From contig OY760175.1 in NCBI GenBank assembly GCA_963663165.1, positions 1,952,001 to 2,016,000 of the forward strand: DNA of 64,000 bases, read 5' to 3'. The translations under genes and the position numbers were made by a program. Within the stretch, counting starts at the first letter, position 1, and every line of letters begins with the position of its first letter. The notes under the pieces were generated by a model that was given only the letters and a program-made list of their open reading frames with translations, searched no databases and was not told where the DNA came from. Origin of the DNA: an uncultured Desulfospira sp. (GTDB taxonomy: Bacteria; Desulfobacterota; Desulfobacteria; Desulfobacterales; Desulfobacteraceae). Of the stretch, positions 9,010 through 52,852 are shown piece by piece.

Positions 9010-9163
9010 ACCGTTCCCTCTTTAAGTGTTGGTATAAAATTTACGGGCTTTATAATAACACCCAAAGCTTTTGGTTTAAAAGATTATTTTTGTCTTTGAG
9101 GATCTGTCAAAGAAGATTCAGACTTCATCCGGATTCCCGCGACCGGTCTTCCGGTCTCCGTCC

Positions 9164-32253: not shown

Positions 32254-32782
32254 GGCGAAGCTCCTTTACAAAAAGAATGCCGGTTCCAAGTCCCATCAGA
32301 CAGCCCACATACCCCAGGCCCACCACCACGGCAGCCATGATAAAAAAGCCAAGCTGCTCCCGGTACATCAAATAGGAATACCCAAGGGAAATCCCCCGAG
32401 AGAGAAAATCAAACAATGCCACCCCGATGACCAGCACCACGGGGTGTTTAAATCTTCCCGTGGCTGCCATGGCAAGATCGCACAGGCAGCCGGCCAGGAT
32501 CACCCCGATAATGGTCATGGGATTGCCGCCCATCAGAATCAGGGAGACCAGGCAGGAAATCAGGGAAAACAGGCTCAAGACCCCGAATTTTCTGACCTTG
32601 TAAACCAGGATAATGAGCAGCGATGTGGCCACGGTATTTTTCATCACCAGGGTGACCGGATTCATGCCGCCGCCGGCCAGGGCGATCATCATGGTGGAAA
32701 TCTTAATCAGGCCGGCAAAGGTGCCGATGGTGATCAGTTCTCCCGGGGTCCAGTAAGGATGTTTTCTTTTGGGATCAGTCAT
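32231..32782 (-). CDS. ECF S component, MptD/Trep_Strep-like
   Basis: About 6 TM; ELITIGTF, KVRKFG, C-terminal LRHAGII. Confidence 0.8.
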   Translation of the reverse strand: MTDPKRKHPYWTPGELITIGTFAGLIKISTMMIALAGGGMNPVTLVMKNTVATSLLIILVYKVRKFGVLSLFSLISCLVSLILMGGNPMTIIGVILAGCLCDLAMAATGRFKHPVVLVIGVALFDFLSRGISLGYSYLMYREQLGFFIMAAVVVGLGYVGCLMGLGTGILFVKELRHAGIIRE

Positions 32783-34164
32783 TTGACAATCTCTTTATAA
32801 AAATCGATCATGCCCTGGGCAAGGTTGGTCTGCCAGAATTCTCCGGCCCGGGTCAGGGTCATCCACCCCTTGGAAAGGCTAACCAGGCCGGCCTGTTCCC
32901 ACTGGGAAACCAGGGGCCTGAATACGGATTCCATATCCATGTCCAACGGGGCCCCGGCGGTTTTAAGGTTAATCCGGCCCATTTCAAGTTCCCCTGCCAC
33001 AATCCGGATCAGCGGCTCGGTTTCATCAGGCTTCATCATATGAACTAAGGGTTTTTCCCACCCTGCACGGTCCAGATATTTTTTTAAATTGCCTTCCAGA
33101 AAATAGCCGTACCCGTTCATAAATCCACCGGCCCCGGACCCGAAGCCTAAGCAGTCGGTCTTGGCCTTCATGAACCGGTTGTACAGATTCCTTTCCCTGA
33201 AGGTCCGCCCCCAGTGGTCAATGGATAGACGCCGGTACCGGGCCTGTTCCATAATAGCTCCCCCCCTTTCAAACATGGCGGCCCGCATGGGGCGGTCTGC
33301 CACCGGCGGCACCTTTTGGTCGGCAATGGCCCGGTCCAGTTTTCCGCCGGGAAACCGGATGAGCTGGTAAAGGTCCACCCCGTCAATTTCAAGGCCCATA
33401 AAGGTGTCAAGGTCCTTTTCCCAGGTCTCCATGGTCTGGCCGGGCAGTCCGTAAATCAGGTCAATGATGACGGCGGCCTGGTCCGTGGCCTTAAGGGCGT
33501 TTAAACAGGCGATGATCTCCCTGATCCCCTGAATGCGGCCCACGCTTTGGCGGATTTTGGTATCAAAGGTCTGGACTCCGATGGAAAACCGGTTGGCCCC
33601 GCCGTCGATACAGGCGGCTATCTTGTCCTCACCAAAGCCGAACACCCGGCCTTCCACGGTAATCTCGCAGTCATTGGCCAGGGGCAGATACTGCCTGGCA
33701 GCTTGCAGAACCTTTTTAAGGTCCCGGGTAGACAAGGCCGTCGGGGTCCCCCCGCCCAGGTAGACCGCATGAACAGGCCAGGAATTCACCATGGGCGAAT
33801 CCGATGCGGCCGCCATCTCCTTAACCAGCGCATCCACATAGGCGTTCTGGTTTTCCTCATTTGCCGGGTTGCCGAAAAAACCGCAGTACAGGCACCGGGT
33901 TTCGCAAAACGGGATATGGATATAAGCGGTGGTTTTCCCCCGCCGGGGGGTTTGAGCCAGGGCCTGCCAGACCCGCGGCCGTTCCTCTTCCGGAACTGGC
34001 TTGCCGCCAAGCCCCGCATGGACAACCGCTTTTCTGGCAAAGGCATCGGCCATGGGGGTATCGCTGATCCGGGCAAAATAAGGCCGCTGTGCCGAATCCT
34101 GGCCAAAGGATTCCATGAGCTTCATTTTGGAATCGACACTGCTGTGGGATACATCCTTTTTCAT
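32779..34164 (-). CDS. hutW: Anaerobic heme-degrading radical SAM methyltransferase HutW/ChuW (copy 1)
   Basis: YIHIPFCETRCLYCGF, YLGGGTPT, LPLANDCEITVEGR, NRFSIGVQ, ERNLYN, LT.AG.FW..NL. Confidence 0.88.
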   Translation of the reverse strand: MKKDVSHSSVDSKMKLMESFGQDSAQRPYFARISDTPMADAFARKAVVHAGLGGKPVPEEERPRVWQALAQTPRRGKTTAYIHIPFCETRCLYCGFFGNPANEENQNAYVDALVKEMAAASDSPMVNSWPVHAVYLGGGTPTALSTRDLKKVLQAARQYLPLANDCEITVEGRVFGFGEDKIAACIDGGANRFSIGVQTFDTKIRQSVGRIQGIREIIACLNALKATDQAAVIIDLIYGLPGQTMETWEKDLDTFMGLEIDGVDLYQLIRFPGGKLDRAIADQKVPPVADRPMRAAMFERGGAIMEQARYRRLSIDHWGRTFRERNLYNRFMKAKTDCLGFGSGAGGFMNGYGYFLEGNLKKYLDRAGWEKPLVHMMKPDETEPLIRIVAGELEMGRINLKTAGAPLDMDMESVFRPLVSQWEQAGLVSLSKGWMTLTRAGEFWQTNLAQGMIDFYKEIVK

Positions 34165-35047: not shown

Positions 35048-35245
35048 AATAAAACTAAAAACATAATTAGCAATGTCTAATTATTGACATGCCATGTAAT
35101 ATTTTGAATTTGCTGCGCTGTCAAGAAAAAATGGAACTATCTGTAGAAAGGCCCTGTCCTGCTCACCTGTCCAATCCCCTCAAGACAAGAAAGAAGCGTA
35201 TCGAATTTTTATGGGATTGGTGTTGGCATAAAAGGGGCGGCCTTT

Positions 35246-36951: not shown

Positions 36952-37060
36952 GGCTGATATTTCCTTGTTTTAAATTTTATACTATACCACCCAAAGACTC
37001 TCAAGAATAAAAGAAAACGAAGCTAAAAGCCGAATGCTGGCAGCCAACCCCTTCCATAAC

Positions 37061-37150
37061 AAAACAGCCGGGTTCTCTGTTTGGGAAGTCCGGCTGTCCT
37101 GTCGGTTCTGTGGTCCCCCCCCCCCCCGGCTGTCCGGGGGGGGGGATTTT
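37061..37150 (-). ncRNA. Degenerate c-di-GMP-I riboswitch/terminator copy
   Basis: 3' half acaggacagccggacttcccaaacagagaacccggctgtttt aligns with 39943-39995; 5' half eroded to C/G homopolymers. Confidence 0.6.
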
Positions 37151-37162: not shown

Positions 37163-37990
37163 CTATTTTCTTGTTCGTCTCAACCCGGCCAGGCCCACAA
37201 GACCTGCGCCCAGCAAGAAAAAGGTGCCAGGCACGGGAACCGAACTTACTGCGGTTGTTGAAATATAAGGTGCAGTGGCACCCTCACGGTCAAAGCTTGC
37301 ATAAACGCTGCCGCACTCTGCCGCTGTGGCAAAAAGCTCCGTCGCATAGGCGTTGGCTAGTTCTTCGTCTTCTTGCAGACTGTCAAAAAACGCCTGGGTA
37401 AGTTCCGGTATCCAGCCGTCATATACATACCCGCTGGCAAGAACAATACCGTTGTTGCTGTCCGGATCAAGAACCCAGCTATTGTACAGATCGGTAATGT
37501 CTAAACTATAAGTGCCGTTGGCTGTCATGGTCAGGCTTGATATAGCGGATTGCGTCAGCAGGGTATTTTTAAGATCTACGACGTTGGCATCATCTCCGTA
37601 GGCTGTCAGTGTCTCCACATCAACATCACCGGGATCATAAACGTCCAGATATGCCGGCAGATCTGCAGTTGTAGCAGGCGGATTGCCGCCGGTCATTGAC
37701 CCTGTTCCTAAAAGGTCGATGACCAGATATGCCGATTCAACGGTCTCAGTTGCCAGAACATTAAATTTCACCCAGCTATAACCCCACATATCTTCGTCTC
37801 CGCCAAACACCTCAAGGGCTGACACTACAAAGTAATCCTTGGAGTCGTCCGGATAAGTAGTATAGGACCCCTGACCACTCATATAGGTGTACCCGGTCAT
37901 TATACTCTCGCCAATAACTTCGGCAGATGCGGTGCCGGTAAATATCATTCCAATCATTGCCAGTGCGATAAACATGTTTTTAAATTTCAT
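37163..37990 (-). CDS. PEP-CTERM protein, Met-conserved DNRLRE-like domain (paralog A)
   Basis: Signal peptide TASA-E; YTYM, WGY..VKF, VESAYLV, DIT.LYN.W, NNGIVL; VPVPG-TM-RRTRK. Confidence 0.9.
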   Translation of the reverse strand: MKFKNMFIALAMIGMIFTGTASAEVIGESIMTGYTYMSGQGSYTTYPDDSKDYFVVSALEVFGGDEDMWGYSWVKFNVLATETVESAYLVIDLLGTGSMTGGNPPATTADLPAYLDVYDPGDVDVETLTAYGDDANVVDLKNTLLTQSAISSLTMTANGTYSLDITDLYNSWVLDPDSNNGIVLASGYVYDGWIPELTQAFFDSLQEDEELANAYATELFATAAECGSVYASFDREGATAPYISTTAVSSVPVPGTFFLLGAGLVGLAGLRRTRK

Positions 37991-38234
37991 TTTTCTTTTT
38001 CCTTTAATTCTTAATAGTTGCATGTCATTTTTCCTTAATTTTTCTTAATTCATTGTCTTTTTCTTATTGCCGTACTTCATTTTGAGTGAAAGCTTTAGAT
38101 ATCACCTCCTTTAAAAAAGCTGTTAGCTGTCAGCGCTTAGCCGTTAGCCGGCCGAAATGGCCTGCATGCTGAAGGCCGACAACTTTCATTATCCGGTTCG
38201 CCCATGGGAAGATGGGCAACACCGGCCATTTTTT

Positions 38235-39833
38235 TTAAGCCTCTTTTTCCCGATTCTCTTCCCGGGATCGGGTCACCATCCCGTAATAATCGATCAGGGC
38301 CTGGGCCAGGTTGACCTGCCAGAACTGCCCGGCCAGGGTCAGGCTGATCCATCCGTCTTTCATTTCAATTAACCCGGCCTGTTCCCACTGGGTCAGCAAG
38401 GGCCTGAACAATTCGGTGATATCGGGCCTGAACTGCCTTTCTAAGTTGGCAAGGTTCAGGTGGCCGGCCTCCAGCTCACCGGTGATCCGGTTGATCAGGG
38501 GTTTAAATTCGGGATAGGCCAGCATGGAGGCCACAGGCTTTACCCCGGATTCAATTGCTGCCGTATATTTGTCCAGGCGGCTTTCCAGATGGCCGGCATA
38601 CCCGCCTAAACTTCCCCCGGCACAGGAGCCGAACGCCAGACAGGGCGAGCCCTCTTTCATCAGCAGGTTGTAGATATTGCGCTCCCGGGTACCCCGGCAC
38701 CAGTGGGTCATGGAAAGCCTTCGAAACCGGGCCTGGTCCATAAGTTCCACCCCTCTTTTAAACATCCAGGCCTGTTCCGGGATATCGGCCGGATACGGCA
38801 GCTTCCCTTTTTCTGCAGCCAGGTCCAGGGGGCCGCCCGCAAAAATGTTCAACTGATAAAGATCTGCCCCGTCAATGTTCAGCTCAATAAGGGTCTTTAA
38901 ATCCTTTTCCCATACGGTCATGTTCTGGCCCGGCAGACCGTAGATCAGGTCAATGACAATGACGGCGGCATTGGTGTCCCGGGCCCGGGACAGGGTTTTG
39001 ACAACCGTATCCTGATCGCTTCTTCTCCCCAGGCTTTTCCGGATAGCCGTATCAAAACTTTGCACCCCGATGGAAAACCGGTTGGCCCCGCCTTCAAGGC
39101 AGGCCGCCAGTGTGGCCTCATCCAAATCGGCAATGGTGCTTTCCACGGTGATTTCGCAATCATTTGCCAGGGGCAACCGGTTTCGGATCTCTTTTAAAAG
39201 CCGTTCAAGGTCCCGGGGCTCCAGGGCCGTTGGGGTGCCCCCGCCCAGGTAGACCGCGTGGATGGGATAATCTGCCACGGCCGGCCGGGCCTGGTCCAAA
39301 CTCATCTCTTTGATCACCGCATCGGTATAGGACGGACTGGATATTTTGCTCAAAGGGTTGACAAAAAAGCCGCAGTACAGGCAATGGCCCCGGCAAAAGG
39401 GAATATGGAAATAGGCGGCCGAACTCTGGCTGCGGGGGGTGCCCATCAGCTCGTCCCATAAGTCATTAATCTTTGATTTTTCCACGGGCTCTCCGCCCAT
39501 GCCGGCATGCACGGTGGTTTTCCTTGAAAAGGCATGGGTTAAGGGGTCCACCCCTTCCCTGGCAAAAAAATCCCGTTCGTCTTCCCGGGCCAGGCTTGAG
39601 GACTGCCTGTCCAGTTGGCCTTTATTTTGTCCGGTCTTTAGCGGGGCCTTGAAATGGTCCCGGTTCCCGGCACCCATCATGGAGGCCTTGGCCCGTTTCA
39701 GATAGGTTAAATCAATGATGTTCCGGTTTTCCGAACGGGCCCGGGACTCAATCCCTTTTTTAACCGTTCTCCGGATAAATCCCGGAACCTGTTCAAAATA
39801 CTCCTGGGCATCACTTGTCCATTGCATGGTCAT
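38235..39833 (-). CDS. hutW: HutW/ChuW radical SAM (copy 2) with N-terminal PCP_red-like domain
   Basis: N-terminal WTSDA......VPGFIRRTVKKGIE..AR; YFHIPFCRGHCLYCGF, LPLANDCEITVE, ERNIYN, LTLAGQFWQVNL. Confidence 0.85.
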   Translation of the reverse strand: MTMQWTSDAQEYFEQVPGFIRRTVKKGIESRARSENRNIIDLTYLKRAKASMMGAGNRDHFKAPLKTGQNKGQLDRQSSSLAREDERDFFAREGVDPLTHAFSRKTTVHAGMGGEPVEKSKINDLWDELMGTPRSQSSAAYFHIPFCRGHCLYCGFFVNPLSKISSPSYTDAVIKEMSLDQARPAVADYPIHAVYLGGGTPTALEPRDLERLLKEIRNRLPLANDCEITVESTIADLDEATLAACLEGGANRFSIGVQSFDTAIRKSLGRRSDQDTVVKTLSRARDTNAAVIVIDLIYGLPGQNMTVWEKDLKTLIELNIDGADLYQLNIFAGGPLDLAAEKGKLPYPADIPEQAWMFKRGVELMDQARFRRLSMTHWCRGTRERNIYNLLMKEGSPCLAFGSCAGGSLGGYAGHLESRLDKYTAAIESGVKPVASMLAYPEFKPLINRITGELEAGHLNLANLERQFRPDITELFRPLLTQWEQAGLIEMKDGWISLTLAGQFWQVNLAQALIDYYGMVTRSREENREKEA

Positions 39834-39942
39834 TGTTTCCTCATGTTGTTGGTAGCTGTTAGCTATTAGCCGTTAGCTGTTAGCGGTTAGCCGGCTGCCA
39901 TTTCCTTCAGCTAACAGCTAACGGCTAAACGCTAATAGCTTT

Positions 39943-40038
39943 AAAAAAACAGCCGGGTTCCCTGTTTGAGGCAACCCGGCTGTCCTGTAAGGATCCGCGG
40001 CTTTCCGTCCCCCGGTTTCCCGGGGTTTGGCTTTTTCG
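39943..40038 (-). ncRNA. c-di-GMP-I (GEMM-I) riboswitch with overlapping intrinsic terminator
   Basis: Minus strand GCCAAA-CCCCGG-GAAA-CCGGGG-GACGGAAAGCCGCGGATCC..GGACAGCCGGGTTGCC, then an 11-bp stem and U-run. Confidence 0.9.
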
Positions 40039-40181
40039 GTTTGTGGGGACTTGGGATATGGGACCTGGGATTTGGGGTTGATTTACGCTTCTATTTCTAA
40101 GGTCTCAGGTCTGAAGTCTAAATCCATCTCCACCGGTTAGACTTTGATTATCTCATTTTGTCCCATTCTTGTTTCCGGTTT

Positions 40182-40979
40182 TTAGTGTCTTGCCCGTCTC
40201 AATCCCGCAAGCCCCGCAAGGCCACATCCGAGCAGCATCAGGGTACCGGGAACTGGAACTGTTGATGAAATATACGGCGCGCTGCCGTTTTCGTTGCCAA
40301 AACTGGCATAAACGCTGCCGCTTTCTGAAGCGATGAGAAGCATCTCTGTTAACAGGGCGTTGTATTCTTCATCGGTAAGACTGTCTATATACTCCTGGGT
40401 AATATCTTTTATATAGCCTTCATAGTTATACCCGCTGGCAAGAATGATACCGTTGTTGCTGTCAGGATCAAGAATCCAGCTGTTGTACAGATCGGTAATG
40501 TCTAAGTAATAGGTGCCGTTGGATGTCATGGTCAGGCTTGACAGAGCGGTTTGCGTCAACAGGGTATCCCTGAGAGCTGAAACGGTGTCTTTATCCAATG
40601 TTTCCACATCAACATCGCCGGGATCATAAAGGTCCAAAGAGGCAACAAGCTCTTCGGTTGTTGCCTCGGGATTGCCGAAGCTCATAGCACCTACACCCAA
40701 AAGGTCGAGAACCAGATATGCCGATTCAACAGTCTCGGTCTCAGTCACTTCAAATTTCAGCCAGCTATAGCCCCACATATCGCTGTCCCCGCCAAACAGT
40801 TCAAGGGCGGTTGCCACAAAGTAATCTTTGGAGGATTCCGGATACGTCGTTGTGGCACCCAGGCCACCCATATAGGTGTACCCGGTTAATTCACACGTAC
40901 CAATAACTTCGGCGGATGCGGTGCCGGTAATTACCATTGAAAATAAAGCCAGTGCCATGAGAATTCTTTTAATATTCAT
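40182..40979 (-). CDS. PEP-CTERM protein, Met-conserved DNRLRE-like domain (paralog B)
   Basis: Same motifs as 37163-37990; VPVPG-TM-RRARH. Confidence 0.9.
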   Translation of the reverse strand: MNIKRILMALALFSMVITGTASAEVIGTCELTGYTYMGGLGATTTYPESSKDYFVATALELFGGDSDMWGYSWLKFEVTETETVESAYLVLDLLGVGAMSFGNPEATTEELVASLDLYDPGDVDVETLDKDTVSALRDTLLTQTALSSLTMTSNGTYYLDITDLYNSWILDPDSNNGIILASGYNYEGYIKDITQEYIDSLTDEEYNALLTEMLLIASESGSVYASFGNENGSAPYISSTVPVPGTLMLLGCGLAGLAGLRRARH

Positions 40980-41242
40980 TTTGATTTATCCTTTTTGATT
41001 TATCCTTTTTGATTTAAATAAAACGTTTTTCTATTTTGGTCTTGAAACAGGCTGAGCTTAAAAGGGTCAGGAATTCACTGACAATGAGTAAAAGGCATGT
41101 ATGACCTCCTTTCTTTCTTATATTCCACAAACATGGGAAGATGCTTTAAAATCGGTTGTTTTTTGTTTTCACACATAGATATGGGTAGGATGGATCAGGG
41201 TCCGGGCCTCTCCTTGACCCATGGTTCCCCCCCCTTGTTGTC

Positions 41243-41905
41243 CTATTTTCTTGACCGTCTCAGCCCCGCAAGCCCCACTAACCCGCTGCCCAGCAACCAT
41301 ACCGCGCCGGGGACGGGCACAGCGCTCGGTACGGTCAGGGTAAGTGAACCCAAGGATGTTCCTTCCGCGTTACCGGACCACCCCTCGCCCGAAACGTACT
41401 GAGCGCCTTGACGAAGAACAATGCTATATTTGTACACAGTACCTGTGTCCAGGGTCCACTCTCCGGTGGACGCATATAGACCTATAGAACTGCTATAATC
41501 GCCAACCGCATCCATTGATTTAAACAAATATTCGGAGGTCCATAAGTTTTTCTCTTTATCCTCATCGTAATAACCAAGGCGGATCGACTGATAGCAGGAA
41601 GAATACAAGGTATCGAGATATTCATCAGCAAGCGTGGCCTCGGAGAAAAGAGAGTAGCCTACGGTTACGGCGCCCTCTGACTCGCCCTCTTCTGCCTCTA
41701 TCGTGAACACGATTGAAACTGAGCCCTTGATGGCTCCATCATTCAAATCACCGCTGAAAACATAGGTTCCGGAGCCCTGATCCGAAAAATCGAAGCTCAC
41801 TGTTTCATCTGCGGTAGTAATTTCTGAAATGACAATCGTATAGGCAAAGGATTGCATGGGTATCAACAGACAAACAACAACAGCGAACATCAGTAACTTT
41901 TTCAT
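41243..41905 (-). CDS. PEP-CTERM protein
   Basis: Signal peptide QSFA-Y; VPVPGAVWLLGSGLVGLAGLRRSRK. Confidence 0.9.
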   Translation of the reverse strand: MKKLLMFAVVVCLLIPMQSFAYTIVISEITTADETVSFDFSDQGSGTYVFSGDLNDGAIKGSVSIVFTIEAEEGESEGAVTVGYSLFSEATLADEYLDTLYSSCYQSIRLGYYDEDKEKNLWTSEYLFKSMDAVGDYSSSIGLYASTGEWTLDTGTVYKYSIVLRQGAQYVSGEGWSGNAEGTSLGSLTLTVPSAVPVPGAVWLLGSGLVGLAGLRRSRK

Positions 41906-41986
41906 GGCTTTCTCCATTTTTAAATTAAATAAAAATAACTACTAAAGGGGGGGGGGCATGACTCATGGTTTGCCCCCTTCTTGTTT

Positions 41987-42709
41987 CTATTTTCTTGCAC
42001 GTCTTAAGCCCACAAGCCCCACAAGGCCGCTGCCCAAAAGCAGCCGTAGGTCGGGTAGAGGGGCGAAACCCGACGTTGGGTTTCGCTCCCGCTCTACCCA
42101 ACCTATACCTGTTTGTACTATTCTTGTTTCCAGTTTATAGTTTCTTGCACGTCTTAAACCCGCAAGCCCCGCAAGGCCTGCGCCCAGCAGCAGCATGGTG
42201 CCGGGTACAGGAACCGGATTATTCCCCACGGCAACCATGGCGGACACATTGTACCCACCCTCACTGACTGTACCTGTGGTAGTGTAATCAAGACCGTAAT
42301 CGCCGCCGTTGGCGGACTCAGCATTGACACTGATGTTGGTTGACCCTTCACTAAGAATGGTAAAGTAAAGGGTGGCCAGCAGGATATTGTCCCCGGTCAC
42401 GCCCTGAGTGGACGTGCCGCCCACAAAATATGCCTGGTAGTAGCCCAGGTTGCTGAACTCTGTTTTATAGAGGGAGTAGCCGAAATATTTGTATATGGCC
42501 TCATCTTCGACAGCCACATCAAAGCCAAAAGAGGTCAGAGAAAAATCGGCCAGGCCTTCTGAATACAGCCAGACATTCACCTCAAAAACCGTACCGGTAT
42601 AGCCGGTATAGCCGGTCTCAACAAGGGTTATATCCGGGGAAGCCTGGGCCGTGCCAAGGCTTAAAAACGCCAGCAACAGCAGTGTCATTGCCGGTATTGT
42701 TTTTTTCAT
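41987..42709 (-). CDS. PEP-CTERM protein with cohesin-like domain and read-through into a second tail
   Basis: FEVNV...FGFDV...ILLATLYF; VPVPG-TM-RRARN, continuing to LLLGSGLVGLVGLRRARK. Confidence 0.8.
   Translation of the reverse strand: MKKTIPAMTLLLLAFLSLGTAQASPDITLVETGYTGYTGTVFEVNVWLYSEGLADFSLTSFGFDVAVEDEAIYKYFGYSLYKTEFSNLGYYQAYFVGGTSTQGVTGDNILLATLYFTILSEGSTNISVNAESANGGDYGLDYTTTGTVSEGGYNVSAMVAVGNNPVPVPGTMLLLGAGLAGLAGLRRARNYKLETRIVQTGIGWVERERNPTSGFAPLPDLRLLLGSGLVGLVGLRRARK
42046..42106. repeat. GTAG-type REP doublet of a different family
   Basis: GTAGgtcgggtagag...gcgaaaccc-gacgtt-gggtttcgc...ctctacccaaccta. Confidence 0.75.
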
Positions 42710-42836
42710 TTGTTCCATCTCCTTTTGTTAGCCGCCCGGAACAGACGGGCCTTAAATTTTCACCAGATAAGAAAGAGGGTAAAGATAAGGGATCAAGAAG
42801 TCTCTTCCTGACTCATGATTTTCCCCCTTCTTGTTT

Positions 42837-43361
42837 CTATTTCATTTCACGTCTTAAGCCCGCAAGCCCAGCAAGGCCTACACCCAGCAGCAGAATGGTG
42901 CCGGGAACAGGCACGGCAGAGGCAGCATCGGTTGCGGTCAGGCGAACCTGAATTTCCGCATAATCGTTTGACACAATCATGCCGCCAAGATAATACTCGG
43001 TGCCGGTGTCCACAGTGTATTCCCCGTCGCCCGAAATCACATTATTTTGGGATAAAAGCAATGCCCCAGCGGCCATAGTGCCTGAGCCTGTTGTCTCGGT
43101 AACACTGTACGCCAGGGTCACGCTATCCGACTCGCCACCCTCAGCTACGATGGTGATATTGCCATAAGTTGCGCCCATGGCACCACCGGTACCCGTATCA
43201 CCTGTACGAATGGTAAAAACATAATCGTCGCCGTCTTGTTCCCACGAATAGCTGTCCAAGACTTGACTCTGGTACGTGAGGGAAAAATCGATCATATAAG
43301 CAAACGATTGCACCGGGAACAGCAGGCAAGCTGTAACAGCCAGTATCAATAACTTTTTCAT
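42837..43361 (-). CDS. PEP-CTERM protein (related to 41243-41905)
   Basis: GGAGG RBS, MKKLL...QSFAY signal, shared G.I.I.AE.GES..VT..YS; VPVPG-TM-RREMK. Confidence 0.88.
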   Translation of the reverse strand: MKKLLILAVTACLLFPVQSFAYMIDFSLTYQSQVLDSYSWEQDGDDYVFTIRTGDTGTGGAMGATYGNITIVAEGGESDSVTLAYSVTETTGSGTMAAGALLLSQNNVISGDGEYTVDTGTEYYLGGMIVSNDYAEIQVRLTATDAASAVPVPGTILLLGVGLAGLAGLRREMK

Positions 43362-43441
43362 AATTTCCTCCGTTTTTTGATTTCTTATTAAATTTAATAA
43401 ATGGGTTATAAGGTTGTCTGAACGAGTAACGCCCTTTTCAT

Positions 43442-44302
43442 CTATCGGTTTCTTGCCCGGCGCAACCCTGCAAGGCCGACAAGACCGAAACATAGCAGGC
43501 AGAAGGCTCCGGGAACCGGCACCGCACTTGTCACCACAGTTGTTGAAATATAAGGCGCATTGGCACCATCACGGTCAAAGCTGGCATAAACGCTGCCGGA
43601 CAAAGCAGCTGTGTCTAATATCTCTTGCACATAGGCGTGATACTCTTCATAGGTTAAACTGTTAATCCATTCATTAGTAACATTCTCCGGTATCCAGCCA
43701 TCATAGACATACCCGCTGGCAAGAACGATACCGTTGTTGCTGTCCGGATCAAGAACCCAGCTATTGTACAGTTCGGTAATGTCTATGCTATAGGTACCAC
43801 TGGCTGTCATGGTCAGGCTTGAGACAGGGGTTTCATCCAATAGGGCATCCTTAAGCGCCTCGACCTGAGCCGCTGCTTCACTGCTCCCATAACCGTCCTC
43901 TCCGTAGACTGTAAGACCCTCCACATCAACATCACCGGGATCATAAACGTCCAGATATGCCGGAAGATCAGTAGTTGTGGCAGGAGGATTGCCGCCGGTC
44001 ATTGAACCTGTTCCCAAAAGGTCGATGACCAGATATGCCGATTCAACGGTCTCGGTTGCCAAAACATCAAATTTCACCCAGGCATAGCCCCACAAATCGG
44101 CATCGCCGTCTGCGCCAAACACTTCAAGGGCCGACACTACAAAATAATCCTTGGCGTCTTCCGGATAAGTTGTAACGGACCCCTGACCGTTCATATAGGT
44201 GTACCCGGTCATAATGGCCTCGCCGATAACCTCGGCAGATGCGGTGCCGGTAATTAACAGCCCGATCATTGCCAGCGCGATACAAATACGTTTAAACTTC
44301 AT
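43442..44302 (-). CDS. PEP-CTERM protein, Met-conserved DNRLRE-like domain (paralog C)
   Basis: Long near-identical stretches with 37163-37990; VPVPG-TM-RRARNR. Confidence 0.9.
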   Translation of the reverse strand: MKFKRICIALAMIGLLITGTASAEVIGEAIMTGYTYMNGQGSVTTYPEDAKDYFVVSALEVFGADGDADLWGYAWVKFDVLATETVESAYLVIDLLGTGSMTGGNPPATTTDLPAYLDVYDPGDVDVEGLTVYGEDGYGSSEAAAQVEALKDALLDETPVSSLTMTASGTYSIDITELYNSWVLDPDSNNGIVLASGYVYDGWIPENVTNEWINSLTYEEYHAYVQEILDTAALSGSVYASFDRDGANAPYISTTVVTSAVPVPGAFCLLCFGLVGLAGLRRARNR

Positions 44303-44329
44303 TTTTCATTCCTTATCGTATAAAAATCG

Positions 44330-45082
44330 TTAATTGATTTTAGTTATTTTTCTGCGCCGCAGACCGGCCAAAGCCGCAAGACCCGAGCCCAGCAGCAGAA
44401 CCGCCCCTGGAATCGGTACGGAAGAGACTGAAACTTGTCCGTTGCGAAGGGCTATAGCACCGACACCGGAGACACCGTCCTTGGTGTAGCAGCCCTGGCC
44501 GCCGGTGGGCATCCTAAAGAGAAAGGCACTATCGGAATCATAAATTGCAGCCTCCGTCCCTGTCCAGTACCACCCATAGCTATCTAAATTTTCAAAATCT
44601 CCTGTTTCGTTCAGCCCGTATTCGCCTCTGGAAAGACGATTACCTGAGGTATCCTGCAATCCCAGGTTGCCCAGTTCCTCATAAAAGAGATGGCCCAACT
44701 CGGAAGTGATGATATTATACCCTAACGTGGTGGTACCATCATATCCGGATTTCAGGGTGCCATCCACAGTGGTTGGCAGCCGCCAGGACGACCCACCCCA
44801 GTCCACGGTATATCCATCATAAAGGATAATGGTCAAAACACCTTCTTCATTCAGGCTTGATGCCCAGGCAACCTGGTCGTCCCAGGTTGAAGCATCATTA
44901 TCATAATCCAGCCACACCACTGAATTGCCATTGTTGTCATCATCCCAGATAAGCTTGTACTCTGATCCGTTGTAAGTAGCCGTGCCGATAGTGGTCAAAG
45001 CGGCGTAGGCCGAAGGAGCAAATCCCAGAGCGACGGCCAGCAGGGCCATGGTGAATGCCATCATAATTTTTCTTAATTTCAT
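44330..45082 (-). CDS. PEP-CTERM protein, DUF1566/Lcl-like
   Basis: LIWD....VVWLD, W..Q..WA, WRLPT, ELGHLFYEELGN, YWTGT; VPIPG-TM-RRRK. Confidence 0.85.
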   Translation of the reverse strand: MKLRKIMMAFTMALLAVALGFAPSAYAALTTIGTATYNGSEYKLIWDDDNNGNSVVWLDYDNDASTWDDQVAWASSLNEEGVLTIILYDGYTVDWGGSSWRLPTTVDGTLKSGYDGTTTLGYNIITSELGHLFYEELGNLGLQDTSGNRLSRGEYGLNETGDFENLDSYGWYWTGTEAAIYDSDSAFLFRMPTGGQGCYTKDGVSGVGAIALRNGQVSVSSVPIPGAVLLLGSGLAALAGLRRRKITKIN

Positions 45083-45563
45083 TGGTTCTTCCTTTTTTGT
45101 TTATTTAATTTTTCTTAAAATCTTTTAAAACACTACCGGTTATAGGATTTCAGCCATTAGCGGTTAGATTTTCCTGCCGGCTGCCGACAGGACATGGCTA
45201 TCCTTATGAAAGGCTGGGAGTGATGGGCCCAAGGCTTTAAGAAAGCCAGCCGGTTATCTTCAGCACTTTCAAAATTTTTCGCGCCCGGCTGTGGGCATGA
45301 CGGTTATATTGAAATGAATAATTGATTGTGATATTTACATTGAGTGAGTGAAGGTTGAGGTATCACCTCCTTTCATACCCGGTCCGCTGCATGGGAAGAT
45401 GCGCGGGCCGGGTTCATTTGGGTTCAGCCGCAGGGCACCGGATTTAGGGCCGGTGCCCTGCGGCAAGGCCAGCGGCGGTCCCGGGGCCGGAAACTCATGT
45501 TTTACTGGTGGCACAGGCAAACAAAGTATCCGGTTCCTGGGGCAGCCCGCCGGCAGGAAGGGG

Positions 45564-46319
45564 TTAACTTCTGCGGCGCAGGCCCACCAGGCCCACCAGG
45601 CCGCATCCGAGCAGCATCATGGTGCCGGGAACGGGAACGGCGCTGGTGGTTTCAATATAAAGAGCCGTGGTGCCGTTAAGGCTGTTACCGGTTTTGCCTA
45701 CACCAGTGAGGCCTGAGAAAACAGCACCGACAGCGCCCACTGCACCGCTGGCTTCATTTGAATTGGGGCTGGCACATACCAGGACAAGACCATTGTTTTC
45801 GATCTCGCCTGAAACCCAGGCATTGTAAATATCTGTAATGTCGATGCCCCAAACGCCGTTTGAGGTCATGGTGGCGGTAGTCAGCAGAGAGGTCGTTCCG
45901 GTACTGGAGTCTGCCAGATCCGCATAAAGAGTTGAAATGGTTGAAGAGGTAAGGTCTGCCACATCCGTGTCACCCGGTGAATAGATATCCAGAACTGCCG
46001 GATAATCTACCGTGGCATCAGTATAGTTCATGCTGCCCACAGCCAGCAGTTCCAGATACAGAACCGCACTGTCCACGGTTTCAGTACCAATATCGCTGAA
46101 TTTAATGGTGGCATAGCCCCACATATTTGTACCGGCGTATTCATATTCCAGGGGACCGGCGATAAAATAATTATCTTCCGAAGTTTGGAATTGCCCTCCC
46201 ATATATGCATAGGAGGTAGAGCTTGCACTGTAAGTATCAGCCAGAGCCGTACCGGCAAAAGCAAATACACTGAACATCAGTGCAATGGCCAATACAATGG
46301 CATTCTTTCTTAATTTCAT
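45564..46319 (-). CDS. PEP-CTERM protein, Met-conserved DNRLRE-like domain (paralog D)
   Basis: YAYMGG, MWGY..IKF, VGSM, DITDIYNAW, NNGLVL; VPVPG-TM-RRRS. Confidence 0.9.
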   Translation of the reverse strand: MKLRKNAIVLAIALMFSVFAFAGTALADTYSASSTSYAYMGGQFQTSEDNYFIAGPLEYEYAGTNMWGYATIKFSDIGTETVDSAVLYLELLAVGSMNYTDATVDYPAVLDIYSPGDTDVADLTSSTISTLYADLADSSTGTTSLLTTATMTSNGVWGIDITDIYNAWVSGEIENNGLVLVCASPNSNEASGAVGAVGAVFSGLTGVGKTGNSLNGTTALYIETTSAVPVPGTMMLLGCGLVGLVGLRRRS

Positions 46320-46511
46320 TTTTCTCATTCCTTTCTTGTTGTAAAATTTAAATAAATAGGATTAATTGGTTTGTTGAAAAAAAAGCTGATTTTCCTTTTA
46401 ACGAATAACCTCAAAAAGTATCACCCCCTTTCGGTTTGTTAGCTGTTAGCTTTTAGCTGTTGCTGTGAGCCATGAGCTATGAGCTGTCAGCAGCTAAGGG
46501 CCTCTTACGGT

Positions 46512-49500
46512 TTAACGGAACAGGCTGTTGATAAAACAGCCGCCGCCCACGCTCTCATCCGGGGTGCTTGCCGTCGCTTCAACTGCGGTGCCGCTCACGG
46601 TCCCGTACACTGAGCAATGATCAGTGGTAAAGGTCACGGTCTGATTTGCCTCATCCACCGAGACGATATTATCCAGGTAGATCTCTTCAATGTCGGCATC
46701 CTCGTCCCCTGAGAAAAAGGTTTCCAGGTCAGGGGCATGGACAATTCTCCAGGACCCCAGGGTGAAGGGGTCATCGGATCCGGCCGCACTGGCGTCATAG
46801 GAGATGGTGATCTCAATCTCCAGAATGTCGGCATCATCCAGAGGCTCCCCGTTTTCATCGTAAAGCTCAAATAAAAACAGGCCGGTGGCACCCCCGGGAC
46901 TTGTGCTGCCGGTGTCCACCACCATCACATAGATCTTTCCGACTGTGGTTGAGACACTGTTGGCCGTAATGGTGATGGTAACGGGGTCCCCTGAAATCGT
47001 ATCAAAATAGATCTCTTTGGAGCCGGTCAGGCCGGCAGGATCATCAATGGCGGTGATCAGCATTTTGGCGCCGTCTTCTCCGGCGGTCCCGCCGATCTGG
47101 GTTGAGTCGTCGCCTTGGGCCATTTCAATACAGACAAAGCTGCCGAAACCGCCCAACTGCTCTAAGGCATCCGTGCAGATGCCGGTGAGCCGCTCTTTTT
47201 CTTCATCCGTGGTACCGGCCGGCAGGTAAAGGGGGGCCTGAGACGTGCCGGACTCCTCTCCGATACCAATATAGATCCGGTCATCTTCGCTGCCGCAGGT
47301 TACGGTGATGCTGCAAAGCCCGTAGTCATCCGGTGCCGTAAAGGTGACCGTGCTGCCGGTAGTGGCGGACAGGGCCGAAGCTGACACATCAGTGCCGTCA
47401 GGCCCCTCAACTGTCCACTGGTAAGTGCCGGAACCGCCCGAAGCCGTCAGGCTTCTGGTCTCGCCCGGGAGCATGGCCGCCGTGGCATTGACCTGGTCAG
47501 TGATGCGCAGTTTGTCCGTATCATATGTGACCAGCAGGTAAGGAGGATCATCGGCATCCTCCCTTGCCACCAGGTGCCAGCTGTATCCGTCGCCGTAATC
47601 AGCACCGTAAATATCGGTTGAACCGGTCCAGGACTGATCGTCATGGTCTTTGAGTTCCAGGCCGTTGTTCTCCCACTGGCCGTTCAGCCATCCCTTTACG
47701 ATGGGGGCCACATCAACTTTTCCCGTGGAGTAGGAGCCTGTGGTGTGGGTCACCAGGACACTGGGGGCTTCGGGCACATACCAGGGTTTGTTGGTCATAT
47801 CCACATACCCGTCACCGGTCACGGCTTCGGTCCAGTAAAAGTCATCTACGGTATCTCCGGTTTTCTCCTGTGTGTCGGTGGAAAGGGCGTATATAGTACC
47901 GTACATGGCCGTACCGTCCGGGGCCGGGGGCCCCACATCCATCTCACCGGCACTGTAGTCGTCCATGGTGTAAACCAGATATGCGGCTTCAATATCTTCC
48001 GTGGTCAGCCCAAGATCGGTTATGGGGCTTAAGTCAAACCGCATAAGAATCCGGGCATCCACAATGTAAACCGCCCCGGCCTTGAGCTTGTATTCCCCCA
48101 TGGAGGTCCCCTGGGGATACCCCTTGCCGTTGCCCATGCCCCCATACAGCACATAGGTGTCTTCGGACACCTCACAGCGAACCGTGCTGGCCACGAGGGT
48201 GGTGAAACTCCAGGTCACGGCAGATCCTAAGGTGTTGCCGGCAAGATCGGCGGCAGTGGCCGCTATGGTAACGGTATATGAGGTTTGCTCTTCAAACACC
48301 ATATCAGGGATAAAGACCAGAACGCTTTTCCCTTCCCAGGAGAGGCTGCCGTCCACTGCCGGGCTAAGGGTAAACCCGTTCTCAACGGTCTCCTTGTCCA
48401 TGTCTTCACTGAAGGTAACCGTTATCGTATCGGTAACAGCCGCCTCAGCCCCGTCTTCAGGGCTGACAGACAGCACCGTGGGGGGACACTGGATATTCCA
48501 GGTGATATTTTCCAGATCAGACCAGACCCCCAAACTGTCCTGCACCTGGATTTTCAGGGTATGGTCCCCGTCGGTCAGGCTGCTCAGTTCCAGGGTGTCG
48601 GAAGGATCACAGGCATCGCTCCAGTCTCCGTCGTCAAGGCAATACCGATAGGCATACACCCCGGTTCCTGATATGGTCAGGCTTATGGTATCTTTTACAA
48701 TGGCGGTATCAGGGGTTCCTTCAACTTCAGGGTCAGGGGCCACATAGGCCCCGGTGGTGAAGCTGAACGTGTACTCGTTTTCCAGGCTTTTTTCTGCGGC
48801 ACTTTGGGCCCCCGTGCCCATGGTCACGGTATAGGCGGTCTCATGGGTTAACAGATCTGTCGGCGTAAAGGTTACGGCCGTTTCAAGGTCATTCCAGGAA
48901 AAAGTCCCGGTTACCGCAGTCTCGGTACTTGAGCTTAAGACCATGGAAAAGGCCTGTTCCACACTTTCGGTGGCCATGGGCTTGTCAAAGCCAATGGTAA
49001 CCGATGTTCCCACATCAATACCGGTAGCGCTTGCTTCCGGAGTTGTGGTATCGACTGTGGGGGCTGATTCAGGGGCAGAAAACGTAATGTAGGGCATGGT
49101 CCCCAAGGTCCCGTTAAGGCCGGCATATTTGGTTCCCACAGGACCCAGGTTAGAGGCATTGGATGCCCCTGAATTTTCACTGTCGCTCATTAAAACAAGG
49201 CCGTTATTGGCCTGATCGCCCCGCACCCAGGCATTATAGATGTCTGTGATGTCGATGGCATAAGTCCCGTTGGCCGTCATGGTGAAGTCCGAAACAATAG
49301 GGGAAGAGGAGGCCTTAAGGGTTGTGTGCAGGGTGGCAGCGTCGGAAACCGTGGCAAGTGAGGCCACATCCGTATCACCGGGGCTGTATATATCCAGTTT
49401 TCCGGGATACGTTTCACTGGCGTCCTCAAGGTACATGCTGCCCACTTTCAAAAGATCAACGACCAGATAAGCACTTTGTACCTCCTCGGTTCCAATGGTG

Positions 49501-49721
49501 TCAAACTTGATAAAGGCAAACCCCCACATATCGGTCCCGTTGAACATATATGTCATGGGACCTGCGATAAAATAGCTTTGTTCGGAGATATTAAAACCTG
49601 TTCCGCCCATATAGGCATACCCGGTCAGGGTACATGGGTAATCGGCAGATGCGGTATGGGAACAAAACAGGTTCCCGGTCACCAGCACTGCTAAAATTGT
49701 TATGATTCTGATTAACTTCAT
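46512..49721 (-). CDS. 1069-aa multidomain surface protein: two DNRLRE-like domains, Ig-like repeats, C-terminal GGGCFI signal
   Basis: N-domain homologous to paralogs A-D; PTV...P...FDKPM/FSEDM...FTT Ig repeats; DTYV...RILMRFDLS...WLNG.WENNG; ends GGGCFINSLFR. Confidence 0.88.
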   Translation of the reverse strand: MKLIRIITILAVLVTGNLFCSHTASADYPCTLTGYAYMGGTGFNISEQSYFIAGPMTYMFNGTDMWGFAFIKFDTIGTEEVQSAYLVVDLLKVGSMYLEDASETYPGKLDIYSPGDTDVASLATVSDAATLHTTLKASSSPIVSDFTMTANGTYAIDITDIYNAWVRGDQANNGLVLMSDSENSGASNASNLGPVGTKYAGLNGTLGTMPYITFSAPESAPTVDTTTPEASATGIDVGTSVTIGFDKPMATESVEQAFSMVLSSSTETAVTGTFSWNDLETAVTFTPTDLLTHETAYTVTMGTGAQSAAEKSLENEYTFSFTTGAYVAPDPEVEGTPDTAIVKDTISLTISGTGVYAYRYCLDDGDWSDACDPSDTLELSSLTDGDHTLKIQVQDSLGVWSDLENITWNIQCPPTVLSVSPEDGAEAAVTDTITVTFSEDMDKETVENGFTLSPAVDGSLSWEGKSVLVFIPDMVFEEQTSYTVTIAATAADLAGNTLGSAVTWSFTTLVASTVRCEVSEDTYVLYGGMGNGKGYPQGTSMGEYKLKAGAVYIVDARILMRFDLSPITDLGLTTEDIEAAYLVYTMDDYSAGEMDVGPPAPDGTAMYGTIYALSTDTQEKTGDTVDDFYWTEAVTGDGYVDMTNKPWYVPEAPSVLVTHTTGSYSTGKVDVAPIVKGWLNGQWENNGLELKDHDDQSWTGSTDIYGADYGDGYSWHLVAREDADDPPYLLVTYDTDKLRITDQVNATAAMLPGETRSLTASGGSGTYQWTVEGPDGTDVSASALSATTGSTVTFTAPDDYGLCSITVTCGSEDDRIYIGIGEESGTSQAPLYLPAGTTDEEKERLTGICTDALEQLGGFGSFVCIEMAQGDDSTQIGGTAGEDGAKMLITAIDDPAGLTGSKEIYFDTISGDPVTITITANSVSTTVGKIYVMVVDTGSTSPGGATGLFLFELYDENGEPLDDADILEIEITISYDASAAGSDDPFTLGSWRIVHAPDLETFFSGDEDADIEEIYLDNIVSVDEANQTVTFTTDHCSVYGTVSGTAVEATASTPDESVGGGCFINSLFR

Positions 49722-49739: not shown

Positions 49740-51863
49740 TTATAATGCGATCCTCAAACCAGCGTAAAAATAGGCGCCCAGAGGAGAATCGAGCATGCTT
49801 TCCCTGTGGCCGCCCTCATAATCGGCCACATCCACGGGCGGTTCTTCATCAAATATGTTCCGTCCGCCCGCGAATACGCTAACAGACGGGGTCAGGGCAT
49901 AGGTGATCTGGGCATTGAAAAAATCAAAGTACTCGATTTTCAGAGCCGGAGATGTATCGCTTAAGTATTTGCCCCGATAGACATAGCGCAGGTTGGCGGT
50001 CAGCTTGTCCTTATACCGGTAGCTTAAGGTGGCGTGTATCTGGGACCGGGGGCGGTTGGTCAGGTCCTTGCCGTCCGGGTCTGTTGCCTCAAGATAATTG
50101 GCGGTTACATCCAGGTCAAACCCCCATGGAAGGGGCAGGCCTATACCGAGTTCCGCGCCTTTAAAAGTGGATGTCCCTTCCAGATTGATATAGGTGGTCT
50201 CGGTATTGGTATTGGATGTGCCTTCCGTGATGATTTCGGTTTCAATCATATTATCAATGTCGTTGCGGTACATATCAACCGTCAGTTGAAGACCGGCGGG
50301 ACCGAAAGGGGTCCAGACCGCCCCCACATTAAAATTGACCCCTTCCGAAGGCTCAAGGTCGGGATTTCCGTAGATATCGTTCCAGCCCATGGCACCAATG
50401 AAATTGTCATGAAGCTGATAAAGGGTCGGGGCCTGGAAAGAGCTTGAAGCAGAGGCCCGGAACGCCAGGTTCTCAGACCATTCGTACCGGGCGGAAATTT
50501 TGGGGGCCAGGTTGGTTCCGAAATCGGAATATTCCTCCACACGTCCGGACAAGGTCACGGTCAGCCGGGTGAAAAGTGTTATGCGGGTTTCACCAAACAG
50601 GGCGTATACATTCCGTTCCTCGACAAAGTCCCGGTATGGGGCATCCACATTTTCCCGGTTAAAGCCGGCCCCCAGGAAAAACGTTAACCAGGGCTTATAA
50701 TCCCAGTTCATATGGGCGTAAATATCCTGGGTATCGGACGTCAGATCGCCGTTATAATCCGGATCTTCGCTCTGGCGGTACTCGGTATCGGACAGGCCGA
50801 GTCCTAAGCCGGATTTAACCCGGAACGTATTAAACTCCCCTTCCCAGGTCAGCCCGCCGTAATAATCTTCCTTTTTGCTCTCACGGTCCTTGTTCAAATC
50901 ACCGGTTACCCCGACGCGCATCACTGAGTCTGTCAGGTTATACCGCAGTTCACCATCCAGGGTCTGGGTGGGGCTGATGTCATAAGATCCGTTGATGTTG
51001 GCCCCGGACTGTTCCACTTCCGGGGATGTCCAGCGCGGGTTGTCCGGGGTGCGGTCATAATGCTGGCTTTCCCGGCTGTTTGCACTGATATTGACAAATC
51101 CTTTTTCACCCACAGCAAACCCGGTGGAAACTTCACCTTTCTTTTCTTCACCATCCCCATGGATGGAACCGCCGGACTGAATGCTGGCGGTAAAAGGCCG
51201 GTTATACTTGCGCAATACAATATTAATTACACCGGCCACAGCGTCAGCTCCGTATTGGGCGGATGCACCGTCCCGGAGAACTTCGATACGCTCAATGTCG
51301 CTGATGTTGATGCCGCTGATATCAGTAAAGGCGAATCCGTCCTTATCCGGCCGGGTGCCGGGCTGGCGACGGCCGTTGATAAGGACCAGCACATGGTTGG
51401 CGTCCATACCCCGCATGCGAAGGGTCTGGACGCCGGGGGTGGCATTCATGTCCGGGCACTGGACCAGTTCAACCCCCTGAAGCACCTCTATGGCCTGGTT
51501 TAAGGAAACCGCACCGATCTCCTGTAAATCTTCGCTGGTGACAATCTGGACCGGCACGGCCATTTTTTCAGGGGTTTCAGTGCCGGTACGGGACCCGGTG
51601 ACCACAACGGTTTCCATCTGGTAAACCGAACTGCCTTTTTGCTGCAGGCCGGATACATCCTGTTGTACAATATCTGAAGCATTTTCTTCCGACAGGGCCG
51701 GTACCTGCCCATGCACCTTTATCGAAGACCATTCCTCTGCGGGGGCATCAGAAAATCTCAGGCATAAAAAAAGGATGGCTGCCATTGCCGAAAGCCTCGA
51801 TATGCCCCCCCCCGGGATGCACAAACAGCTGCCCTGCCTGCCCGTTTTTTCAAACCAATTCAA
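49740..51863 (-). CDS. TonB-dependent outer-membrane receptor
   Basis: TonB box ETVVVTG, IERIEVLRDGASAQYGADAVAGVINI, FQAP...H...NPDL, C-terminal beta-strand FYAGLRIAL. Confidence 0.93.
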   Translation of the reverse strand: MNWFEKTGRQGSCLCIPGGGISRLSAMAAILFLCLRFSDAPAEEWSSIKVHGQVPALSEENASDIVQQDVSGLQQKGSSVYQMETVVVTGSRTGTETPEKMAVPVQIVTSEDLQEIGAVSLNQAIEVLQGVELVQCPDMNATPGVQTLRMRGMDANHVLVLINGRRQPGTRPDKDGFAFTDISGINISDIERIEVLRDGASAQYGADAVAGVINIVLRKYNRPFTASIQSGGSIHGDGEEKKGEVSTGFAVGEKGFVNISANSRESQHYDRTPDNPRWTSPEVEQSGANINGSYDISPTQTLDGELRYNLTDSVMRVGVTGDLNKDRESKKEDYYGGLTWEGEFNTFRVKSGLGLGLSDTEYRQSEDPDYNGDLTSDTQDIYAHMNWDYKPWLTFFLGAGFNRENVDAPYRDFVEERNVYALFGETRITLFTRLTVTLSGRVEEYSDFGTNLAPKISARYEWSENLAFRASASSSFQAPTLYQLHDNFIGAMGWNDIYGNPDLEPSEGVNFNVGAVWTPFGPAGLQLTVDMYRNDIDNMIETEIITEGTSNTNTETTYINLEGTSTFKGAELGIGLPLPWGFDLDVTANYLEATDPDGKDLTNRPRSQIHATLSYRYKDKLTANLRYVYRGKYLSDTSPALKIEYFDFFNAQITYALTPSVSVFAGGRNIFDEEPPVDVADYEGGHRESMLDSPLGAYFYAGLRIAL

Positions 51864-52024: not shown

Positions 52025-52068
52025 AAGTTCGTATGTTCGAACTTATTTTTTATTTACTTATTTGTCAA
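52025..52068 (-). promoter_or_regulatory. Putative DtxR/MntR operator overlapping the receptor promoter
   Basis: AAGTTCG-TATGTT-CGAACTT (52025-52044) with perfect arms; TTGACA at 52068-52063 and TAAGTT 17 bp downstream. Confidence 0.7.
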
Positions 52069-52378: not shown

Positions 52379-52852
52379 ATGAAGAATCAATACCCGCCGT
52401 TAACCCCTACTCAGGAAGACTACCTGGCCGCTATTTTCAGACTGGCCCAAAAAACCGGCGAGGCCCGTTCTAATGCCATTGCGAACACGCTGGGGGTATC
52501 AAAATCCACTGTACCGGCAGCCCTCAAATCCCTGGCCGCCAGAGAACTGATCGTCTACGAGCCCTACAGCCCCATCCGCCTGACACCCAAAGGCTATGAA
52601 ACCGGCAAACGGATTGCCCACAGAAACTTTATCCTCAACGAATTTTTTGTAAAAGTCCTTCAACTGCCTGAACAGGAGGCCAGAAACACCGCCTGCCGGG
52701 TGGAGCATGCCGTCAGCGACGACACAGTCCTTGACCTGGGCCGTTTCATTTTCTTCCTGAAAGAATCCCGGGTTGATCTGACAAACTGGAAAGAAAAATA
52801 CAAGATCCCCAAAGACCATGCATTTGAACTCAACCCTTTTTCTGATCTTTAA
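52379..52852 (+). CDS. DtxR/MntR-family metal-dependent repressor (short form, no FeoA domain)
   Basis: EDYL..I, LGVSKSTV, I.LT.KG, HR...EFF...L, ACRVEH. Confidence 0.92.
   Translation: MKNQYPPLTPTQEDYLAAIFRLAQKTGEARSNAIANTLGVSKSTVPAALKSLAARELIVYEPYSPIRLTPKGYETGKRIAHRNFILNEFFVKVLQLPEQEARNTACRVEHAVSDDTVLDLGRFIFFLKESRVDLTNWKEKYKIPKDHAFELNPFSDL

Follow-up and report, generated by a model that had tools for sequence, protein, structure and literature searches.

We analyzed a 64,000-nucleotide stretch of contig OY760175.1 from an uncultured Desulfospira sp. (the whole of this stretch is called the window), in which five minus-strand open reading frames (ORFs) encode copies of one domain, named here the Met-pair domain. 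They lie in a minus-strand series that contains the genes for a TonB-dependent receptor (at 49740), a large surface protein, eight PEP-CTERM-type proteins, two HutW/ChuW enzymes, the S, T, and ATPase components of an energy-coupling factor (ECF) transporter, a flavodoxin, and a PNPOx-like protein (Table 1). An initial annotation of this DNA had described five alignable copies that share a set of motifs, are very acidic and almost free of His, and carry acidic inserts in paralogs A to C. All of these observations were reproduced. The five ORFs are mutually alignable in the ORF list, with trimmed domains 38 to 53% identical to the copy at 45564, and each contains Y(T/A)YM, WG(Y/F)xxxKF, G(S/A)M, PGDxDV, TMT, DIT(D/E)xYNxW, and NNG. 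The three quoted insert strings are present in 37163, 40182, and 43442, and the composition per domain is 20 to 39 Asp plus Glu, 2 to 6 Lys plus Arg, and 0 or 1 His. A profile of the five copies retrieved just these five proteins from the 6.74-Mb genome (E ≤ 1e-73; next protein, E of 0.4). A sixth, divergent copy within the large protein was detected by hhalign (E of 6.7e-5; probability, 64%).

Four copies consist of a signal-peptide-like N terminus, the domain, and a PEP-CTERM-type tail. Matches to the PEP-CTERM family PF07589 were above the cutoff for 37163 and 45564 and just below it for 40182; 43442 had no match, and its tail is visible. The features by which PEP-CTERM proteins are recognized, namely, an N-terminal signal, a VPxP-hydrophobic-basic tail, and exosortase genes in the genome, are all present. 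The GGGCF tail of the large protein is encoded at 46512 to 46560, and a CPBP-family protease gene lies nearby (54571 to 55224); its product weakly resembles the CTERM-processing MrtJ (40.9 bits; cutoff, 75) and has a homologue in locus L031. In the gene at 41987 to 42718, the PEP-CTERM tail is followed by an in-frame partial duplicate tail (41987 to 42140, minus strand).

Table 1. Features of the window, in order of position
Feature	Position	Strand	Details
PNPOx-like protein	28951..29463	-	PF01243; also adjoins the flavodoxin in Planctomycetota loci
HmuF/FldH-like flavodoxin	29485..29994	-	Sequence match in the PDB limited to heme-bound FldH (8G64); cap His retained
ECF-type transporter	30101..32782	-	MptD-like S, T, and fused ATPase genes
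HutW/ChuW 2	32779..34164	-	TIGR04107, 521 bits
Paralog A	37163..38023	-	Signal-peptide-like N terminus, Met-pair domain (37253-37921) with acidic insert, PEP-CTERM tail; Met48, Met110 (and Met166)
HutW/ChuW 1	38235..39833	-	Anaerobic heme-degrading radical S-adenosylmethionine (SAM) methyltransferase; TIGR04107, 511 bits (cutoff, 400)
c-di-GMP-I-GGC riboswitch	39966..40040	-	65.7 bits (gathering, 59); directly upstream of HutW 1
Paralog B	40182..40979	-	Met-pair domain (40260-40910) with insert, PEP-CTERM-type tail
Four unrelated PEP-CTERM-type genes	41243..45082	-	At 41243, 41987, 42837, and 44330, in the same cassette
Paralog C	43442..44302	-	Met-pair domain (43538-44233) with a predicted two-helix insert (domain residues 187-211); VPVP tail
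Paralog D	45564..46328	-	Met-pair domain (45645-46238), PEP-CTERM tail; Met43, Met100 (and Met154)
1,069-amino-acid surface protein	46512..49721	-	Met-pair domain at the N terminus (49077-49643; Met38, Met96), a pair of Big_5 Ig domains, and GGGCF at the C terminus
Sixth, divergent domain copy in the large protein	47517..48185	-	About amino acids 513-735; Met in both equivalent loops
TonB-dependent receptor	49740..51863	-	FQAP...NPDL loop with conserved His and Met
Palindrome upstream of receptor	52025..52044	.	Partly kept in relative G001
DtxR/MntR-family regulator	52379..52852	+	Divergent

Conservation was assessed in sequences P0001 to P0161 together with the locus ORFs, among which 64 domains scored at least 120 bits and 48 remained after removal of those with at least 90% identity. 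In these 48 non-redundant members, which share a mean identity of 45%, Met1 is Met in 45 of the 46 rows that cover it and Met2 in 47 of 48. The third methionine (Met3, in TMT) is retained in 36 of 47 members and replaced by I, V, A, or W in the other 11. The proposal of three invariant methionines thus holds among the window copies but not family-wide. A three-Met site was rejected, since Met3 is replaced in 11 of 47 members and sits at the end of a strand; the part of the proposal that gained support is a probable Met-ligated heme binder, a reading favored by the conservation of two methionines, by the groove mapping, and by the genes found nearby in two phyla. The lone exception, P0036, has lost both Met1 and Met2 and is nested, on a long branch, among Met-bearing rows. 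Of 16 more distant homologues, picked by eye from the match list of a large database, all have Met1 and 14 have a Met in loop 2. Among 11 generic control proteins, Met1 was seen in none of the 10 in which the position was visible, and a loop-2 Met in one of the nine parsed. P0068, P0095, and P0113 lack Met1. In two distant PEP-CTERM homologues (P0056 and P0069), each of the two Met sites has a His close by, although the register is not exact; they are possibly a His-ligated version.

Besides the two methionines, the family has no conserved His or Cys. This bears on the idea that a free soft metal ion, namely, Cu(I), Fe(II), Ni, or Co, is the ligand of the Met pair, which would feed or protect the uptake system. 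Cu(I) is bound by Met-rich sites, the domains are very acidic, and some loci (L010 and L033) show only DtxR, FeoB, PepSY, or heavy-metal ATPase genes, all of which would suit such a role. Two conserved methionines without a conserved His or Cys would nevertheless leave an ion site incomplete, and the recurrent neighbors process tetrapyrroles, so that we regard free-metal binding as very improbable.

Two AlphaFold2 models (predicted local distance difference test score of 91) place Met1 at the tip of a hairpin and Met2 in a loop. The nearest folds are those of carbohydrate-binding module (CBM) family 96 and a chondroitin-sulfate CBM. The best match was 8WAB (Z of 14.7; root mean square deviation [rmsd], 3.0; 163 residues aligned), alongside the CBM96 structure 7VBO (Z of 12.9; rmsd, 3.4; 165 residues aligned; Foldseek E of 7e-4; Atlas features, 0.96), and the next matches were prodomains of transforming growth factor beta, with Z near 8. 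These matches agree with the likeness to DNRLRE-type domains pointed out in the initial annotation, and most of the other motifs that it called invariant seem to reflect the fold shared by the CBM96 clan. Members of the DNRLRE/CBM96 clan are known glycan binders or of unknown function. At the sequence level, the large protein reached 36.4 bits over two stretches with the DNRLRE model NF033679 (cutoff, 34 bits), and the four single-domain proteins reached 23.9 to 30.1 bits. The five proteins had no match to PF24517 (CBM96), and a PDB sequence search with the five-copy profile returned only chance matches (E ≥ 0.66).

The groove was mapped by hand from a profile alignment to 7VBO (E of 2e-6), with an offset of 16 checked against residues named in PMC9971899. 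Met1 aligns at Asn9, beside the wall formed by Lys10 to Thr13, and Met2 aligns at Ser66, in the opposite wall (Ser63 to Glu67), twelve residues past a conserved Ala that matches Ala54. By this alignment, the two methionines would lie across the CBM96 ligand groove from each other. The Ca2+ ligand Asp82 corresponds to the conserved Asp of PGDxDV. Alginate binding by CBM96 needs Lys10, Lys25, Lys27, and Arg36 (PMC9971899); in the Met-pair domains, these positions align with small or apolar residues, Arg36 corresponding to the Gly of WG. The acidic insert, with predicted helices at residues 187 to 192 and 195 to 211, is located in a groove-flanking loop that carries Asn157 and Tyr159. By this mapping, the helical insert would stand at the groove rim, where it may change how the paralogs meet heme donors; such a location is compatible with the proposed tuning of donor specificity but does not prove it.

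The fold itself raises the alternative that the domains are still glycan-binding or structural surface modules, used in a biofilm matrix or to adhere to particles or hemoproteins, and that their association with iron-uptake operons is incidental. The two nearest folds, the unrelated PEP-CTERM genes in the cassette, the proteases in the cassettes of relatives, and the cyclic di-GMP riboswitch within the cassette are compatible with this explanation. We consider it unlikely, given that the essential CBM96 residues are replaced, that the domains are net acidic, and that glycan binding would leave two invariant loop methionines unexplained.

The family is small: one search gave 14 matches, and 25 representatives at E ≤ 1e-30 were found among 1.84 billion sequences. 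Its carriers are Desulfobacterota-like and Planctomycetota genomes. The domain was found in 1 of 60 genomes of relatives and in none of 400 genomes sampled from the phylum of the window, and none of 21 candidate stretches on viral contigs encodes a relative of it. For the lineage of genome G459, a phylum sample of 400 genomes, with few candidates scored per genome, gave only one weak further match.

We scored the gene context of 20 loci with a full-length Met-pair domain, the window included; the duplicates L002, L035, and L111 were left out, as were L036 and L037, whose gene was not returned by the ORF caller. The following groups were obtained. (i) Heme-specific neighbors (HutW-like, ChaN, HmuF-like, and, in one case, HmuS) occur at nine loci. 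HutW and an HmuF-like protein are encoded in the window and L011; ChaN, a HutW-like enzyme fused to an ECF S unit, and an HmuF-like protein in L014, L091, L107/108, and L109; ChaN, an HmuS orthologue, MotA/ExbB, and DUF2149 in L089; a ChaN-like protein in L110; and an HmuF-like protein in L013. The HmuS orthologue scored 1217 bits to 9D26, versus 366 for ChlH. (ii) At L007, L008, L009, and L015 (4/20), a gene for a CbiX-like chelatase adjoins the domain. (iii) Iron-uptake genes only are found at L010, L031, L032, and L033 (4/20). (iv) L012, L030, and L034 (3/20) have none of these genes, L030 and L034 being on short or edge contigs. At seven weak-match control loci, several of them short contigs, no heme genes were found; the neighbors of these Met-less controls instead include LacI/GntR, GH92, and pectate-lyase-like genes, which speaks further against a glycan-related role of the Met-pair domain.

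Several observations were made on the composition of these loci. In L014 (14063 to 16165), L091, L107, and L109, the HutW-like radical SAM enzyme is fused to an MptD-like ECF S component, which suggests that import is coupled to degradation. Beside HutW in two genomes of the same family (L118, 11970 to 14471; L120, 6839 to 9340), an HmuF-like flavodoxin and a TonB-dependent receptor share one ORF of 834 amino acids. The HmuS orthologue of L089 and the MotA/ExbB and DUF2149 genes that come after it lie at 6564 to 12643, in a genome of the G459 family. Compared with the window, the ECF, flavodoxin, and PNPOx-like proteins of L011 are 90 to 94% identical and HutW and the regulator 79%, versus 42% for its single domain copy; its large protein has a different N-terminal domain. 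Change is therefore fastest in the surface cassette. Another unannotated surface domain, recognized by eye (Q-x-W ... WY/WW-R), occurs in L011 (6549 to 7300), L013 (7970 to 8845), and the C-terminal half of L014:10765-12261; it replaces the Met-pair domain at the N terminus of the large protein in L011, where the piece has no Pfam match. Secreted papain-like and subtilase proteases are encoded within the cassettes of L011, L032, and L033, recalling the cooperation of gingipains with HmuY, in which heme is released from proteins.

In the window, both HutW/ChuW enzymes carry CxxxCxxC and score above the TIGR04107 cutoff. The flavodoxin matches 8G64 with an E of 3e-23, and its cap His is present in all six aligned locus flavodoxins. 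FldH (8G64) is a paralog of HmuF, which carries heme to HmuW (PMC10404700). In the receptor, FQAP and NPDL and the His and Met between them are at least 90% conserved in 34 sequences; TonB heme receptors have an FRAP/NPNL motif with a His (PMC6449446). The palindrome upstream of the receptor is a candidate operator, and no palindrome shared across the regulator regions of distant loci was seen. The riboswitch opens the possibility of second-messenger control of heme degradation; it is followed by a hairpin and a T-run, and a similar hairpin stretch lies near 37060 to 37095. Promoter and terminator scans gave results near the shuffle background. The cluster is interrupted at 34304 to 36951 (minus strand) by genes for a secreted-looking protein and for an AAA-ATPase/PD-(D/E)XK protein with a shifted N terminus (36691 to 36951 and 35246 to 36853). 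An intergenic element, consisting of a GC hairpin with a CAT/ATG core and then GAAAGGAGGTGAT, recurs mostly upstream of PEP-CTERM-type genes, at about 45335 to 45420, 41050 to 41150, and 38150 to 38235 (minus strand) in the window and in L011, L030, L032, and L033. Two-sided changes were found at 6 of 19 predicted pairs in six sequences, and the window copies had no Rfam match.

Farther along, the window contains Ni/Co ECF genes and TonB/ExbBD genes. The main ligand of the Met pair could be another metallo-tetrapyrrole (siroheme, a cobamide, or F430), bound for the recovery of Fe, Co, or Ni. DUF4198 and CbiM/NikL/Q/O genes near the cluster, DUF4198 in L012 and L110, the CbiX-like chelatase gene directly after the domain at four loci, and a receptor for which the BtuB model outscores the hemin model are in favor of this view. 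The neighbors of known substrate (HutW, HmuF, HmuS, and ChaN) act on heme, and the CbiK-like IhtB has itself been proposed to strip iron from heme (PMC12094164); we judge a main ligand other than heme to be distinctly improbable.

Taken together, the data point to probable bis-Met, surface-tethered hemophores built on a predicted CBM96/DNRLRE-type groove, in which capture of ferrous heme would feed iron release through the receptor, the ECF transporter, and HutW; we assign this reading a probability of roughly 0.7. Two methionines on opposite walls of the predicted groove would clamp the heme iron. (i) The proteins, with their CTERM tails and in a genome with exosortase genes, would be exported by Sec, anchored by exosortase or CTERM processing, and displayed at the surface. 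(ii) Met1 and Met2 would capture Fe(II)-heme under anoxia, as their conservation, the groove mapping, and the precedent of Tfo suggest; bis-Met ligation favored under reducing conditions has precedents in Tfo, for which it was proposed, and in Shp (PMC6200708). (iii) Heme would be handed to the TonB-dependent receptor and imported by the ECF transporter. (iv) The HmuF-like flavodoxin would deliver it to HutW for ring opening and release of Fe, if these members of known families act like their published homologues. Because the genome encodes AhbD, the organism likely makes heme and would import it for iron, so that uptake is likely aimed at iron rather than at heme itself.

A number of points weigh against this reading. 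The assignment of the walls is uncertain, as the alignment behind it is weak (E of 2e-6) and the loops differ in length, and the CBM96 groove has been described as broad and shallow. Neither NCBIfam nor the PDB matches class the receptor as a heme receptor; its best NCBIfam model is a B12 receptor (164 bits, versus 106 for hemin), both far below the cutoff, and there are Ni/Co ECF genes farther downstream in the window. Heme-specific genes are missing from 11 of the 20 loci, and a single order accounts for five of the nine positive loci, which lowers the number of independent cases. The three Planctomycetota HutW-like enzymes scored reach 287 to 305 bits, under the cutoff of 400. Finally, HutW is encoded in 5 of 61 genomes, and in three of these five the domain is missing at the HutW locus, which makes it an accessory.

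A broader scheme, which we regard as doubtful, is that a CBM fold was rebuilt as a bis-Met tetrapyrrole trap. The tandem paralogs would then form a set for collecting various metallo-tetrapyrroles, among them heme, siroheme, and perhaps F430 or cobamides, or for stripping different hemoproteins of neighbors. In free-living anaerobes from two phyla, the same module would plug into three kinds of iron release, namely, ring opening by HutW, de-chelation by HmuS, and CbiX-like de-chelation.

The domain likely represents a previously undescribed hemophore family of bacteria from oxygen-free habitats. Literature searches, which covered few subscription journals, returned no description of it, and by title or start of abstract, none of the DNRLRE papers listed is about heme. 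If the proposal is correct, hemophores gain a scaffold with no sequence relationship to HmuY, and both a group of PEP-CTERM proteins and one branch of the DNRLRE/CBM96 clan acquire a specific role in nutrient capture. It would also mean that specialized surface machinery serves free-living anaerobes in the competition for heme iron, a trait that has mostly been investigated in host-associated bacteria. The data also show a Planctomycetota-related genome with an HmuS-type locus; the HmuS, MotA/ExbB, and DUF2149 genes of L089 resemble the hmuYRSTUV layout (PMC12583661), and the string "Planctomyc" is absent from the available part of that paper.

Compared with known systems, the window proteins share features with four. 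(i) CBM96/DNRLRE proteins (7VBO, 8WAB, NF033679, and PF24517) have in common with them the predicted beta-sandwich (Z of 12.9 to 14.7), the DIT...W...NG motif, and the Asp aligned with a Ca2+ ligand. The Met-pair domains differ in their identity of 13 to 16%, the absence of the basic groove residues, the two methionines placed on the groove walls by alignment, the net acidity, and a context of heme genes rather than lyases. (ii) Shp of Streptococcus pyogenes is likewise a surface protein, with bis-Met heme ligation and transfer of heme to an importer (cited in PMC6200708), but belongs to a Gram-positive system and had no sequence match in the PDB searches. (iii) The Fusobacterium hmu, Escherichia coli chu, and Vibrio hut operons also combine a receptor, an anaerobilin synthase, and an HmuF-like flavodoxin (PMC10404700), whereas in the window an ECF system takes the place of HmuTUV-type ATP-binding cassette import, HutW is encoded twice, and the surface proteins form an array. 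(iv) HmuY and Tfo are, like the proteins studied here, surface or secreted all-beta proteins of anaerobes encoded with a TonB-dependent receptor. For Tfo of Tannerella forsythia, which prefers Fe(II)-heme, two Met ligands have been proposed, inferred without a holo structure (PMC6200708). Membership in the HmuY family was rejected: the five proteins had no PF14064 match at an E of 0.01, HmuY was found in none of five domain-bearing genomes tested (the Bacteroides thetaiotaomicron control was positive), and it was not among the fold matches listed, the top ones of which were of the CBM96 type. The HmuY family has lipoprotein anchors in place of CTERM tails, whereas the window family, with its tails, occurs in Desulfobacterota-like and Planctomycetota genomes. 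By analogy, the best reading is that the Met-pair family works like HmuY and Tfo without being a member of their family.

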